45,876 nt of DNA from Promethearchaeia archaeon (GCA_029856105.1 JAHQWH010000047.1:1-45876); one strand, 5' to 3'; positions 26,568 to 31,535 are shown, counted from the first letter of the stretch. Notes: generated by a model from the letters alone, not told the origin. Numbers and translations: made by a program.

Positions 26568-28577
26568 ATGCAACAAAAATTTAACCCTAAAGATATAAAA
26601 ATTGGTCTTAAATTACCTACAATTTTGACCCCACTAAGCTCAATTATTATTCGAATGGCTTTTTTTGTAGATTATGTCTTCCCTCCTCTATTTAAAATAT
26701 TTAAAATAATTGGGCGTTTGGGTAAACTTCAAAATATTAGTTTTTTACCTGAAAATGACGTTATTAGATTAAAACAAACCCTTATAACTCTTGAAGACGG
26801 AGGAAAGTTAGCAACCGACATATATTTACCGAAAGAGATTTATAAAAAGAAAGGCAAGGGCCCTACAATTCTAATAAGACTACCTTATTGGAAAGATCGC
26901 CTTAGCATATTAGGGTATTTCTTAGCATCTAAAGGTTTTGTTTCAGTTCTCCAAGATATCCGCGGCACTGCGCAATCGAGCGATTATAGTACTAATTCGA
27001 TATACATGTATGAACGACAAGATGGTTTAGAAGTTCTACGTTGGATCACTAAACGATTTTGGCATAATGGAAAAGTAGGGATGTGGGGATTGTCTTATTT
27101 GGGCATAACACAATTAGCGGTATCTTGGAATAACGAAAATTTACTTACTTGTTTAAGTCCAATTCACAGTTCTTTTTCAAATGTTTTTTGGCATCCTGGA
27201 GGTTTGTATCCGATTGGTTTGTCAGGATCTCTTTATTTAATCATGAATTCAACCTCAAGCATGAAAAAACTAACAACTATGGATTTTGATCAGTGGGATA
27301 AAGATGGATATTACAAACAATTGTTTTTTAATCCCTCAATTAGCTTATATAACGAACCTATAGACTCAAAAATACCAAAATTATCGGATATGGCAAGCAT
27401 AGAAGGAGCTAAATACTTGATGAAGATTATGAATCGAGTCTATAAAACGGATGTAGATGTTTCTAAAAAGGACGATGGCTCGTTCGCTAAGTTGATAAAG
27501 GAAGTGTTCTATGAGAGAAAACTATTTCACAATCACGAATTATCCCCATATGGATTTGGACTTGATTATAAATTTAATACGCCCATACTGTTTATTGGGG
27601 GTTGGTACGACATGTTTATTGAACACATGGTACGAGACGCGAAGTTAATACAAGAGAAGGCTCCAGAATTTTTTAAAGAGAATTTTAAGATGATCATTGG
27701 CCCTTGGACACACATGAATATGGATAAATTATTTATTAAGCCATTAAAGTACGCCCATTTAAAAGATGATTTCAGGTTTTTTAAAAATATCCTTCCATTT
27801 TGGTGGTATGAATCTTGGTTAAAAGGAGAAGAGGCAGATTTTTCAAAACTACCTCCATTACAAGTATTTGTGTTAAATAAAAACATTTGGAGAGGTTTTA
27901 AAAAGTGGCCGCCTTCTTCCAATGAATTTAAATTATACTTACATTCTAATGGGAAAAGTAATAGCCTTTACGGAGATGGTTTCCTTTCAAAAAACGAACC
28001 GAAAGAAGAACCGCCCGATAGATATAATTTCGATCCTACTAATCCTGTGATTACAAAAGGGGGACGAAATCTTTTTCTCTTAAGCGGCCCTCAAGATCAG
28101 ACTAACATTGAAAAGCGTGATGATGTATTAATATACACTTCAAAAACGCTCGAAAAAGGGATAGAAATTATCGGTGAGGTCAAAATGGTCCTTTTTGCTT
28201 CTACCACCGTACGGGATACAGATTTTATGGTTAAGCTAGTTGACGTCTACCCTAATGGAAAAACTTCAATAAATGTTATAGATTCTGGCGTAAGAGGTCG
28301 CTTTCTTAATGGCGATTTGAACGAACCTAAACTCATCAAACCAAATAAAATAAATAAATACGAATTCGCTATTGGTTCAATTGGTATCTATTTCCCAAAA
28401 AACCACAAAATACGCTTAGAAATAACTTCGAGCAATTTCCCCCGATTCGACGTAAATTCCAATCTTGCAGGGGTACAAAATGAGAATGGGTACAAGGTTG
28501 CTACACAAACCATATATCACGATAAAGTTAATCAATCACATGTAATCCTTCCCGTTTTTTCTAATGAAAAACAATAA
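26568..28577 (+). CDS. CocE/NonD-family alpha/beta hydrolase (peptidase S15)
   Basis: RLPY, QDIRG, nucleophile GLSYLG, GGWYD, GPWTH, C-terminal SSNFPRFDVN. Confidence 0.92.
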   Translation: MQQKFNPKDIKIGLKLPTILTPLSSIIIRMAFFVDYVFPPLFKIFKIIGRLGKLQNISFLPENDVIRLKQTLITLEDGGKLATDIYLPKEIYKKKGKGPTILIRLPYWKDRLSILGYFLASKGFVSVLQDIRGTAQSSDYSTNSIYMYERQDGLEVLRWITKRFWHNGKVGMWGLSYLGITQLAVSWNNENLLTCLSPIHSSFSNVFWHPGGLYPIGLSGSLYLIMNSTSSMKKLTTMDFDQWDKDGYYKQLFFNPSISLYNEPIDSKIPKLSDMASIEGAKYLMKIMNRVYKTDVDVSKKDDGSFAKLIKEVFYERKLFHNHELSPYGFGLDYKFNTPILFIGGWYDMFIEHMVRDAKLIQEKAPEFFKENFKMIIGPWTHMNMDKLFIKPLKYAHLKDDFRFFKNILPFWWYESWLKGEEADFSKLPPLQVFVLNKNIWRGFKKWPPSSNEFKLYLHSNGKSNSLYGDGFLSKNEPKEEPPDRYNFDPTNPVITKGGRNLFLLSGPQDQTNIEKRDDVLIYTSKTLEKGIEIIGEVKMVLFASTTVRDTDFMVKLVDVYPNGKTSINVIDSGVRGRFLNGDLNEPKLIKPNKINKYEFAIGSIGIYFPKNHKIRLEITSSNFPRFDVNSNLAGVQNENGYKVATQTIYHDKVNQSHVILPVFSNEKQ

Positions 28578-28650: not shown

Positions 28651-29448
28651 TTATTTTAATTTAACTATATCAGCCGTCTTATATAAATACATGAAATAAA
28701 AATTGCTAGCGGGTCCAAAAGCGATATGATCGGCCATAACACCAAAATAAGATAATTTTTTAAAAATATCTTGTGTCAGAATTATAAAGGCATCTTCCCC
28801 TTCGTCCATTACCACGCTAGTTCCAAAAACTTGATCACGGGAACGAATTTCAGCGATTTGAGCGTATTTTTCAAGGATTTCTTTAAATTTTTTATCCTTT
28901 ATTATTACTTCTTCAACTAATAATCTAATATCTGTGACTCCTCGAGCTCTTGCTTTTTTTATTTCCTCGTAAAACAAATCTAAAAATTCGAAATCCTGTG
29001 CGACAAGGTATAGGGCCATTTTTGCTGAATTTATTAAAGTTAAAGCTCTATTAATACAAACATCTCTTCCCCGGTGAATATATAAAGCAACTTTTATCGG
29101 TGTATCGTGAGATTCGTAAATGGGGGTAAGCTCACGAATAATTGTGTCTGAATATCCGTCAAAACTATCGCTGTATTGTTTTTTTGCGATTACCAACGCT
29201 TCATCAGGGCTTTTTGCGAAATATCTCGACGGTCTTGATTCTTCCTCTTTTAAGATCCACATTTTATCCTTTTCTAATTGAGTTAAAATGTTATAAATTC
29301 GAGAATATGGAACTCTTGAGGCTTCAGAAAGCTCTCTCGCGTCCATAGGCCCTTTTGAGATTAAAGTTAAATATATTGCTATCTCGTAATCCGTTAAACC
29401 AATCGAACGTAGAGATTCTTTAACGTTCTCGGGAGTTTCATGTGACAT
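28651..29448 (-). CDS. TrmB-family transcriptional regulator
   Basis: GLTDYEIAIYLTL...ARELSEASRVPYSRIYNILTQL wHTH, RPSRY, C-terminal effector domain. Confidence 0.9.
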   Translation of the reverse strand: MSHETPENVKESLRSIGLTDYEIAIYLTLISKGPMDARELSEASRVPYSRIYNILTQLEKDKMWILKEEESRPSRYFAKSPDEALVIAKKQYSDSFDGYSDTIIRELTPIYESHDTPIKVALYIHRGRDVCINRALTLINSAKMALYLVAQDFEFLDLFYEEIKKARARGVTDIRLLVEEVIIKDKKFKEILEKYAQIAEIRSRDQVFGTSVVMDEGEDAFIILTQDIFKKLSYFGVMADHIAFGPASNFYFMYLYKTADIVKLK

Positions 29449-29585
29449 TTTTTTACACCATTAACCAAAATCGTGTAATTTAAGAGATTTTGGGCACTTA
29501 AAAGAATTTTGTTAATTAATAAATTAATAAATATTTCATACTATTTCATACTATATTTTTTTTTTTCTTTTTACCCTTGCGGGGT

Positions 29586-29624
29586 AAGTCGTTTTGCGAC
29601 TAGAATTTTCTCGCAAAAGTCATT
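29586..29624 (-). promoter_or_regulatory. Putative eukaryote-like SECIS element
   Basis: AAUGAC-UUUUGCGA-GAAAAUUCUAG-UCGCAAAA-CGACUU: AUGA/GA tandem sheared-pair core, perfect 8-bp helix, apical AAAA; directly 3' of an ORF with an in-frame UGA. Confidence 0.75.
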
Positions 29625-29626
29625 CT

Positions 29627-29824
29627 TTATGATAATATTAGATTTAAAATGATTTTTTGACAAACATTGGCTAAGCAAAGTCATCCACCTCCGTTGTCAT
29701 CTTGGGGGATGAAATTGATGACTGCAACAGAGATGATTGTAGTAAAAGTAATAACCAGTGCTATGATAATAATGGCAATGAATATTTTTTTATTTCTTTT
29801 ATTTTCCAGAATTTTTAAAGGCAT
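29627..29824 (-). CDS. Putative small membrane selenoprotein (65 aa; UGA codon 48 at 29683..29681)
   Basis: MPLKILENKRNKKIFIAIIIIALVITFTTIISVAVINFIPQDDNGGG-U-LCLANVCQKIILNLILS*; basic N-terminus plus TM helix; SECIS-like hairpin just after the TAA. Confidence 0.7.
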
Positions 29825-29906
29825 ATTTAAAACATTTTTATTATGTTAATTGATAAAATTTGTAGTAAACATAAAGAAACATAGAATCTTAAACTTATTT
29901 TTTTTA

Positions 29907-31535
29907 TCAATCAAAATACTTTTTAACGAATTCTTGGCGATAAATTTCCGGATTTTCAGAGTTTTTCAAGATAAAGTCCTCATATCTACCATAAATTTTA
30001 AGCATATCGTCGTATAATTGTCTACAAGCTTCTGTTGGTTTTATGACTTCAATACCTTTAATGTATAAAAACTGTTTCACTAAATCGGACCATTCCTTTT
30101 TAACATTGATTGAATCATAATAAGATTTAGCGCTTCTAAAAGCAGCGCCTATGGCTGCAGAATCAGGGACATTAAATATACGTACTTTAGTGTTAAATAT
30201 ATCTGCTGCTACTTGTAAGATTTCTCGATTTGCAGATGCTCCTCCAGTTGCATAAATCTCTTCAGGCTTTTCACCAATCCATTTTGAGTGTAATCTCATA
30301 GACAAGAATTGAGCCTCGATAATTGCTCTAACATTTCCTTCTAAATCTTTATCATCGAATCCAAACCGGTATACTTTAGGTTGCAATACAAACGGGACGA
30401 TCTCAGGAAAAAAATAAGGGAGCATTATTTTCCCATAATTACCACAAGGTGTTTTTTTTAAAATCGCTGAAAAATCCTTCCAAGTAAGGTTGTAATTATT
30501 TTTAACCTTCTCTCTTGCTAAAGAACCATTTTTGTAGCAGATTAGGCTCATATAATCGCCTGTGGGCGCTCCAAAAACGTGTCCCTCGCCCTTCAAATCA
30601 AAATGTAAGTTCTTCATATAACTAAAATATGTATCGCTTGTCCCTAAACTAATCGCAACTTTACCTTTTTCTGTAAGACCAACTCCAATTAGGCTATTGG
30701 GATTATCTCCCGACCACGCGATTAGGATAGTTTCTGGAGAAAAACCAAATCTTTCTACAAAATAAGGAGATATTTTTCCTATGACATCGTAAGAATTGAC
30801 AAGGGACGGTAATTTTTGTCGTAAATTCAGAGCAGTAGCGTTTAAAGCTTTATCGTCCCATTGTTTAGTTCTAATGTTCATTAAATTCATACCTGCTCCA
30901 TCCCCATGGTCGATTGGTGAATTTTTACCTAGTAATACTGAAGATAGAAAAGAGCTTACGAGATGAATCGTTGAAGTTTGAATATAATCGTCGTAATTTT
31001 GTTCGTAAAATTTTCTGATTTGCGGTCCAGAAAATCTCTCAAAAGTATTTGAACCAGTTATACTTATTGTAGGTTCTAATCCTCCTAATTCAAGACGAAT
31101 CTCTTCGCATTGCTTGGTTGTGCTTGAATCCATCCAGATTGGACTAGTTTCTCTTGTAAAGACTTTCTGTAATTGATTTACTAAAGATTTTTTAGAATCT
31201 AAATTTTTTAGAGTTGTTTCGAAAGAATTGTTTAAATAAACCGTTCCATGTTGCTGACCTGAACCAGAAATTGCTTTTATTTCGTTCAAAGGTAAGTTTT
31301 TTTGAACAAGCGCTTTAAATAATAATTCTAAAGCTTCTACCCACATTAATGGATTCGAATGAACAACTTTACCGCCATTCGAAGTAAAAACGCCATTTTG
31401 GGTGTTATAATGTGGTAGTTCTTCGTCAAAATTAATACTGTGACTAATGATAATTTCATTTTTGCTAAGATTTATGAGAACGGCCGTTAAACTTTGAGTT
31501 GAACAATCTACACCGAGAAAATAATCCATATTCAT
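29907..31535 (-). CDS. xylB: D-xylulose kinase (FGGY family, eukaryote-like subtype)
   Basis: LGVDCSTQSL, SGSGQQHG, WMDSST, ERFSGPQIRK, GDNP, ISLGTSDT, KNGSLARE, TGGASAN. Confidence 0.88.
   Translation of the reverse strand: MNMDYFLGVDCSTQSLTAVLINLSKNEIIISHSINFDEELPHYNTQNGVFTSNGGKVVHSNPLMWVEALELLFKALVQKNLPLNEIKAISGSGQQHGTVYLNNSFETTLKNLDSKKSLVNQLQKVFTRETSPIWMDSSTTKQCEEIRLELGGLEPTISITGSNTFERFSGPQIRKFYEQNYDDYIQTSTIHLVSSFLSSVLLGKNSPIDHGDGAGMNLMNIRTKQWDDKALNATALNLRQKLPSLVNSYDVIGKISPYFVERFGFSPETILIAWSGDNPNSLIGVGLTEKGKVAISLGTSDTYFSYMKNLHFDLKGEGHVFGAPTGDYMSLICYKNGSLAREKVKNNYNLTWKDFSAILKKTPCGNYGKIMLPYFFPEIVPFVLQPKVYRFGFDDKDLEGNVRAIIEAQFLSMRLHSKWIGEKPEEIYATGGASANREILQVAADIFNTKVRIFNVPDSAAIGAAFRSAKSYYDSINVKKEWSDLVKQFLYIKGIEVIKPTEACRQLYDDMLKIYGRYEDFILKNSENPEIYRQEFVKKYFD

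Follow-up and report, generated by a model that had tools for sequence, protein, structure and literature searches.

A probable 65-codon membrane selenoprotein gene with a lokiSECIS element in a Promethearchaeia genome

In a 45,876-nt stretch of the genome of a Promethearchaeia archaeon (GCA_029856105.1, JAHQWH010000047.1:1-45876; the whole stretch is called the window below), the minus strand holds a small gene of 65 codons plus a TAA stop (29627..29824) in which codon 48 is an in-frame UGA. From its sequence and translation and from 45 distinct members of its family, we conclude that this is very probably a genuine selenocysteine (Sec)-decoding gene whose product is a 65-residue selenoprotein. 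A reading made from the DNA by itself (the sequence-only reading) had proposed this gene, and the positions it gave for the start ATG (29824-29822), the in-frame TGA (29683-29681) and the TAA (29629-29627) proved exact when compared with the sequence and its translation. The product reads MPLKILENKRNKK-(TM)-NFIPQDDNGGG-U48-L-C50-LANV-C55-QKIILNLILS, where TM stands for a transmembrane helix; the motif G45-G46-G47-U48-L49-C50 spans 29675..29692 on the minus strand, with the Sec TGA at 29683-29681 and Cys50 encoded at 29677-29675. Under translation table 11, a listing of open reading frames (ORFs) gives only a 47-codon fragment at this locus, and public gene calls are either fragments ending at the UGA or carry Trp at the Sec position, which bears out the earlier remark that gene callers miss the full gene.

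Family members were collected with a DNA search in 40 relatives together with a scan of the locus, and with whole-genome profile searches in which stops were read through. The 45 distinct members were verified together with their selenocysteine insertion sequence (SECIS) elements, and the SECIS alignment holds 44. We found the ORF and its SECIS in 37 of 41 genomes of the genus, 43 of 54 genomes of a sibling genus and 89 of 134 genomes of the taxonomic family, usually as one copy per genome. Among the named records with such loci are metagenome-assembled genomes labeled ‘Promethearchaeota archaeon’ (e.g. Loki_b31 and cold-seep bins), which agrees with the Lokiarchaeial origin assumed in the sequence-only reading. 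The window's own genome has two copies; the second, on contig C122 (1120-1320, plus strand; locus L120), ends in ...IEDENGG-U-CC-VAILSTILVNLAKYYY before its stop, and the apical loop of its SECIS measures 10 nt, the element reaching 45.2 bits with the covariance model R1 described below. The other 266 of the 400 phylum genomes contained no member, the matches there covering the TM helix only and including no TGA. On these sequences the small selenoprotein family is lineage-specific, being confined to one taxonomic family of the Promethearchaeota/Lokiarchaeia and to the Sec form; its range is narrow and its origin probably late. At the genus loci the frame opens with a basic N-terminal segment, which leads into a hydrophobic helix, a linker that is acidic and rich in Gly, the TGA, and x-C or xxx-C; after these come 11-19 further codons, a stop and then the Lokiarchaeal form of SECIS (lokiSECIS).

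Conservation around the UGA codon

The Sec position is TGA in all 45 distinct members and never TAA or TAG, in agreement with the sequence-only reading's expectation that homologues would keep TGA at the same codon, and every full-length match in the 89 genomes carries the in-frame TGA. Long ORFs of the window's genome end in TAA (75%), TAG (13%) or TGA (12%), and the final stops of the 45 members are TAA in 30, TGA in 13 and TAG in two. The frame of the small ORF has no stop besides the Sec TGA in any member, while each of the other five frames is open in at most five of the 45. Two antisense ORFs on the plus strand (29667-29849 and 29702-29818) were considered as candidates and rejected, the three antisense frames being open in 0, 5 and 0 of the 45 members.

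Sec48 and G46 are the sole invariant columns in two alignments. Three glycines (GGG) directly precede Sec in 32 of 45 members, with Gly codons there varying synonymously, and the codon after the TGA, when it encodes Pro, may be any of CCT, CCG, CCA and CCC. A Cys lies near Sec in 43 of 45 members (at +1 to +4 in 41, encoded by TGT in 21 and TGC in 20, and at -2 or -3 in two), giving the spacings U-x-C, U-xxx-C, U-C, C-x-U and C-xx-U, and in no member does a stop fall between the UGA and the Cys. The synonymous variation of Pro, Cys and Gly codons points to constraint at the protein level both before and after the UGA. Of the two cysteines assigned to the protein beforehand, C50 is conserved in relatives and C55 is not. 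When a profile is made from a single genus, its alignment to members of other genera extends through the tail. The ratio of nonsynonymous to synonymous substitution rates (dN/dS) before the TGA is 0.33-0.61 in four subgroups; after the TGA it is 0.32 in subgroup D, where differences at the three codon positions number 18/3/31.

Several observations weigh against reading the UGA as Sec. The whole case is comparative, and the members are related, so that a count such as 45/45 represents fewer independent events than it suggests. After the TGA, dN/dS is 0.7-1.6 in subgroups A-C, measured over only about 16 codons. The open frame past the TGA has a mean length of 18.9 codons in frame and 23.2 in the +2 frame, and open-frame length therefore does not discriminate. 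For coding-type conservation past the TGA, which the sequence-only reading had advised looking for, speak the four Pro codons, the TGT/TGC exchange, the lack of a stop before the Cys, the tail alignment and subgroup D; against it speak subgroups A-C and frame length. Two of the 45 members have no Cys near Sec, showing that the Sec/Cys couple is not universal, and the function and topology proposed below are predictions. The Sec position also has no anchoring Cys-for-Sec homologue: such homologues, which the sequence-only reading had suggested looking for, were absent from 154 genomes of the order, 400 of the phylum and 1.84 billion representative proteins. As to the +2 frame itself, which often starts at an AUG overlapping the UGA, it was rejected as a candidate; in 9 of 36 members it runs for only 2-7 codons, and it is therefore not a conserved ORF.

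A profile search of the same 1.84 billion representative proteins returned 43 matches, most of them 44-62 residues long and ending at the Sec position. Five run on with W at that position (P0008, P0011, P0012, P0021 and P0027), all from short metagenome contigs. The DNA of P0011 and P0027 (L099 and L100) translates only when TGA is read as W, identifying these two as genetic code 4 calls of the same UGA. No Pfam family matched the window protein at E<=0.001, and at E<=10 the 43 members gave generic TM noise (ETRAMP, Sigma_reg_N) with neither SelK (PF10961) nor SelS (PF06936) among the matches. No such family is described in the 2016 lokiSECIS study (PMC4989117), a 2024 survey of >400 Asgard genomes (PMC11227280) or a 2026 review, and further full-text literature searches turned up none. 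The earlier statement that the protein matches no recognised archaeal selenoprotein family is in keeping with both results.

The lokiSECIS hairpin and the selenocysteine machinery

The hairpin that follows the gene is a type I lokiSECIS (29589..29623, minus strand), identified with the R1 model and by covariation. It is made up of AUGA (29623-29620), a 5' stem strand CUUUUGCGA (29619-29611), an 11-nt apical loop GAAAAUUCUAG of the GAAAA...AG type (29610-29600), a 3' stem strand UCGCAAAAC (29599-29591) and GA (29590-29589). It begins 3 nt 3' of the TAA, and the distance from the UGA to the AUGA, first base to first base, is 60 nt. The sequence-only reading had placed the core about 58 nt from the UGA and described a perfect 8-bp helix; the short spacing and the eight Watson-Crick pairs stand, with the correction that the distance is 60 nt and that a C.C adjoining the core brings the stem to the nine lokiSECIS positions. 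By its published definition, a lokiSECIS comprises AUGA, a 9-bp stem, an 11-nt apical loop and GA near a stop codon; the first five loop bases are mostly A, and the last is an invariant G that usually follows an A (PMC4989117). The dinucleotide directly 3' of the stem is rarely AA in place of GA. The candidate hairpin has every one of these features, with the C.C at the core-adjacent stem position as its sole deviation.

Across the 44 aligned members, AUGA and GA are invariant, as are loop columns A21-A24 and G30, while the innermost stem position is non-canonical in 24. All nine stem pairs show double-sided changes, at values reached by none of 500 shuffles, and 93% of stem cells are paired compared with about 45% when the partner strand is slid. 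The AUGA/GA core is thus conserved at orthologous loci with compensatory changes in the stem, as had been anticipated. Within the genus, the gap between stop codon and SECIS ranges from -4 to +19 nt.

The R1 covariance model was trained only on 13 SECIS elements of VhuD/Prx genes and run with filters off, so that the small selenoprotein family had no part in building it. With this model, the check that the sequence-only reading had advised gave the candidate hairpin 56.2 bits (E 3.7e-12, 29586-29629), the runner-up in the 45.9 kb reaching 12.7 bits, and exactly one match per family locus was obtained at 23 loci. The strict lokiSECIS pattern occurs at just seven sites in the whole 3.66-Mb assembly. 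Four of these follow known selenoprotein genes (three VhuD/FrhD-like, with the Sec motif GU..EC, and one Prx-like, with WUSHC), and the others are the candidate, an ambiguous site on contig C19, and a site without an A-rich loop that lies within an ORF. The stem of the VhuD-like gene SECIS on contig C194 differs from the candidate stem by one compensatory pair. The SECIS element is far beyond chance.

The R1 training set leaves out locus L113 (G004:C47:5800-6750; SECIS at 813), where a well-formed lokiSECIS is present but the 420 nt upstream of it contain no gene recognisable as that of a selenoprotein. The ambiguous site on C19 (120158, minus strand; L121:322-365) is a lokiSECIS-like element with an R1 score of 27.5 bits (E 1e-4) and the usual trailing GC hairpin, located about 50 nt past a 36-codon zinc-ribbon ORF (CPNC...CKVC) that ends TGA-TAA; it may serve a C-terminal Sec of that ORF or be an orphan SECIS.

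An Rfam scan of the region at E<=10 found no SECIS family and only chance small RNA and small nucleolar RNA matches. This silence is uninformative because Rfam holds no lokiSECIS model, and general SECIS models likewise failed on Loki elements in the original study (PMC4989117). The sequence-only reading had also cautioned that SECIS helix I is weak. In these genomes, the type I lokiSECIS elements of known genes lack helix I as well and are followed by a separate small hairpin, which makes the caveat immaterial. The second hairpin noted earlier in the window is indeed present, at 29586-29572 (29572..29586, minus strand; UACCCC GCAA GGGGUA region). This short GC-rich structure is 88% paired with three covarying pairs across the family, starts 3-5 nt after the SECIS GA, and has the consensus GAC-NNACC...GGTT with a loop that is often GCAA or GCGA. 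Its equivalent follows 12 of the 13 SECIS elements of VhuD/Prx genes and is found throughout the small selenoprotein family, the loci concerned including L107-L119 and L027; we did not find it in the accessible portions of the lokiSECIS and Asgard selenoprotein literature.

Every member retains its SECIS, with a spacing of 44-121 nt to the UGA that narrows to 57-60 nt within the genus. The 13 members that end in UGA have this final stop 0-5 nt from the SECIS, and according to the 2016 study, Loki UGA stops this close to a SECIS terminate translation under a minimal-distance rule (PMC4989117).

We found the Sec machinery of the genome to be complete, with every component that the sequence-only reading had listed for confirmation: tRNA-Sec, a PSTK-like gene, SepSecS, a SelB-like gene and two SelD genes. 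SepSecS scores 479 bits and lies on the same contig as the SelB/EFSec-like gene (229 bits). The latter and the PSTK-like gene (139 bits) are under the NCBIfam cut-offs, each being the best and only candidate for its function. The two SelD genes are in tandem (contig C222:10694-13087, plus strand; L001 and L002) with one in-frame TGA each; multiple selD copies are reported for Lokiarchaeia in the 2024 survey (PMC11227280). The tRNA-Sec gene, which adjoins SepSecS (contig C16, about 26700-26860, minus strand; L094:1440-1610), contains two intron-like insertions, one of about 31 nt in the D-arm region and one of about 30 nt within the T-loop. Its exon parts match, with 100% identity, an intronless tRNA-Sec from another genome of the genus. 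It was located only by probing with that relative's tRNA-Sec: aragorn reported seven tRNAs in the whole assembly and no tRNA-Sec, and the Rfam model RF01852 also missed it on the genome, the interrupted gene scoring only 28 bits. In the genus, tRNA-Sec is above the Rfam cut-off in 13 of 30 genomes.

Taken with the hairpin, these genes suggest a mechanism in which the UGA at codon 48 would be recoded to Sec by tRNA-Sec and the SelB/EFSec-like factor, under the direction of the type I lokiSECIS 60 nt downstream, itself 3 nt after the true TAA. From the comparisons above we infer that selenium would actually be inserted at codon 48.

Neighbouring genes and alternative explanations

The sequence-only reading had named xylB and trmB as flanking genes, and Pfam places an FGGY carbohydrate kinase gene (29907-31535, minus strand) upstream and a TrmB-family regulator gene (28651..29448, minus strand; TrmB and Regulator_TrmB) downstream. 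The kinase gene ends ...YFD-TGA-TAA at 29907-29912 (minus strand). At 28 of 28 genus loci a TrmB-like gene comes next downstream on the same strand, and the upstream neighbour varies; in the sibling genus TrmB gives way to other genes, and the loci are flanked by an ARMT1-like phosphatase gene, an MFS transporter gene and uncharacterised genes. Comparing neighbourhoods in the genus and the sibling genus, we found no partner gene conserved across genera. Between the second hairpin and the start of the trmB-like gene, the minus strand has a tandem 10-nt repeat (two copies of ATAGTATGAA, 29535-29554) and an AT-rich stretch TTATTAATTTATTAATT, which could be a promoter or operator.

The constancy of the TrmB-like neighbour, about 165-200 nt from the SECIS start at all the genus loci, raises the possibility of a selenium-sensing leader ORF, in which the balance between Sec read-through and termination would tune expression of the downstream trmB gene and the peptide itself would matter little. 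The lack of an oligo-T run after the second hairpin and the weak constraint on the tail past Sec are consistent with this idea. However, the sibling genus keeps the ORF, the GG(G)U and the SECIS where the downstream gene is different or on the opposite strand, and the second copy in the window's genome on C122 lies elsewhere. Conservation at the protein level, with dN/dS of 0.33-0.61 before the TGA, extends to the basic N-terminal segment, the TM helix, the Gly run and the Cys, none of which a pure leader would need; in addition, trmB may have its own promoter in the AT-rich spacer of about 125 nt that precedes it. We therefore consider a leader function quite unlikely.

A second alternative, that the UGA is an ordinary stop closing a 47-residue membrane peptide that ends in GGG, with the hairpin a relic or an element of RNA stability or termination, would fit the database proteins that mostly end at the Sec position, the dN/dS near 1 after the TGA in three subgroups and the lack of an Rfam match at the hairpin. 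Against these stand a TGA that is invariant in 45 of 45 members of a lineage whose window genome prefers TAA, Pro and Cys codons that vary only synonymously after it, the lack of any stop between it and the Cys, and a covarying lokiSECIS that every member keeps at a fixed spacing and that cannot be told apart from the elements of VhuD/Prx genes, all of which make ordinary termination very unlikely. As a third alternative, the SECIS might belong to the upstream FGGY kinase, whose TGA-TAA ending lies about 285 nt upstream on the same strand and could encode a C-terminal Sec (...YFD-UGA-UAA), leaving the small ORF incidental. Yet the kinase is the upstream neighbour at only 13 genus loci, its place being taken elsewhere by a radical-SAM gene in the opposite orientation or by genes unrelated to it; the SECIS is always 44-121 nt from the UGA of the small ORF, which is kept where the kinase is missing, and a terminal UGA conserved in FGGY orthologues only where a SECIS follows was not seen. 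This explanation has practically no chance of being correct, and a Sec codon in the small gene remains the reading that we favour.

Predicted membrane architecture and comparison with known selenoproteins

The sequence-only reading had described a hydrophobic helix of about 23 residues, and from hydrophobicity, charge and AlphaFold a single TM helix is assigned to about residues 14-36 (29717..29785, minus strand), after the basic N-terminal MPLKILENKRNKK; a hydrophobic stretch of 20-30 residues is found in all members. On average across the family, the N-terminal segment has 4.2 K/R, and the loop after the TM helix has 0.1 K/R and 1.4 D/E. By the positive-inside rule, this charge bias indicates an N-in/C-out signal anchor with Sec predicted to lie just outside the membrane, in line with the orientation proposed earlier. 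Member proteins are 45-110 residues long, with 4-14 residues between TM helix and Sec and 1-61 residues after Sec (17 in the window protein). The AlphaFold model (43-row alignment, mean predicted local distance difference test score (pLDDT) 75) has a helix at residues 9-38 with a core pLDDT of about 90 and a second helix at 50-64 that starts at C50 with a pLDDT of about 65; GGG-U48 lies in the loop between them, at 39-49. The C-terminal tail (residues 51-65; 29630..29674, minus strand) is hydrophobic or amphipathic and, judging by dN/dS and AlphaFold, weakly constrained; two genera lack it, their proteins ending ...GGGUC and ...GGUGC, from which it follows that the tail is not essential. The protein would thus begin with a basic segment in the cytoplasm and cross the membrane once; a linker, acidic and rich in Gly, would hold Sec48-x-Cys50 a few residues outside the membrane surface, with a loosely constrained amphipathic helix after it. 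If the gene is real, the most likely chemistry, to which we give somewhat less than even odds, would be that of a redox-active selenylsulfide (Sec-x-Cys) or of a soft-metal or chalcogen site on the outer membrane face.

Archaeal selenoproteomes, as reported, consist of about eight families of soluble enzymes, each with Cys-containing homologues (PMC11227280, PMC13188914). If our interpretation is true, the small protein would be the first membrane-anchored selenoprotein of Archaea and the first archaeal selenoprotein family known only in Sec form, and it would illustrate how short selenoproteins restricted to one lineage escape homology-driven surveys and standard gene callers. The 57-60 nt between UGA and SECIS in the genus, together with the UGA stops 0-5 nt from the SECIS, would also provide natural data on the minimal working distance of the Asgard SECIS.

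The closest mechanistic parallels are the genes already known to carry lokiSECIS elements, which in Mariotti et al. 2016 (PMC4989117) and Huang et al. 2024 (PMC11227280) are those of HdrA-VhuD/FrhD, VhuU/FrhA and Prx-like proteins. The recoding apparatus, the type I lokiSECIS and the trailing GC hairpin are common to the Lokiarchaeal VhuD/Prx genes and the small selenoprotein family, and in both a UGA adjoining the SECIS acts as a stop. Unlike those selenoproteins, the small protein is unrelated to any of them in sequence, membrane-anchored, without a cofactor domain and without Cys homologues, and its Sec UGA is unusually near the SECIS, at a distance that is nearly fixed in the genus. The small selenoprotein resembles lokiSECIS-decoded genes in mechanism and is outside every described selenoprotein family. 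Thioredoxin-fold selenoproteins with CxxU or UxxC motifs (e.g. the Asgard Prx-like protein with WUSHC on contig C77 of the window's genome) likewise have Sec beside a resolving Cys, an arrangement that suggests selenylsulfide redox chemistry; in contrast to them, the small protein has no thioredoxin fold, only two helices, and a variable Sec-Cys spacing.

In eukaryotes, SelK and SelS are small selenoproteins that cross the membrane once and carry Sec among glycines at the C-terminus or close to it, with GGUG(R) as their ending; a kink-turn SECIS in the 3' untranslated region directs the decoding. Their Sec-bearing domain is long, disordered, rich in Pro and Gly, and cytosolic. The sequence-only reading saw in the small protein a possible analogue or forerunner of this pair, and the layout part of that comparison stands: these proteins too are small, have one TM helix and bear Sec behind glycines not far from the C-terminus. 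The lone TM helix and the GG(G)U context are present in all members, and in the two tailless genera the ends recall those of SelS and SelK. The rest of the comparison did not hold up. Sequence matches are lacking, as the Pfam search of the 43 members showed; members were found in a single taxonomic family of Lokiarchaeia and in none of the other 266 phylum genomes searched; Sec follows the TM helix by 4-14 residues and is at the extreme C-terminus in only two of the 45 members, the others usually having a hydrophobic tail after Sec and a partner Cys at +2 or +4; and the charge bias predicts Sec outside the cell, the reverse of the topology of SelK and SelS. The eukaryote-like SECIS of the Asgard host lineage (PMC4989117) would favour true homology, but no eukaryote-specific selenoprotein family is reported for Asgard archaea in the 2024 survey (PMC11227280), and we regard descent of SelK/SelS from this family as highly unlikely. 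That an Asgard-born, Sec-only membrane selenopeptide with Sec outside the cell might stand at the start of, or run parallel to, the SelK/SelS type of the endoplasmic reticulum membrane is a long shot as well.

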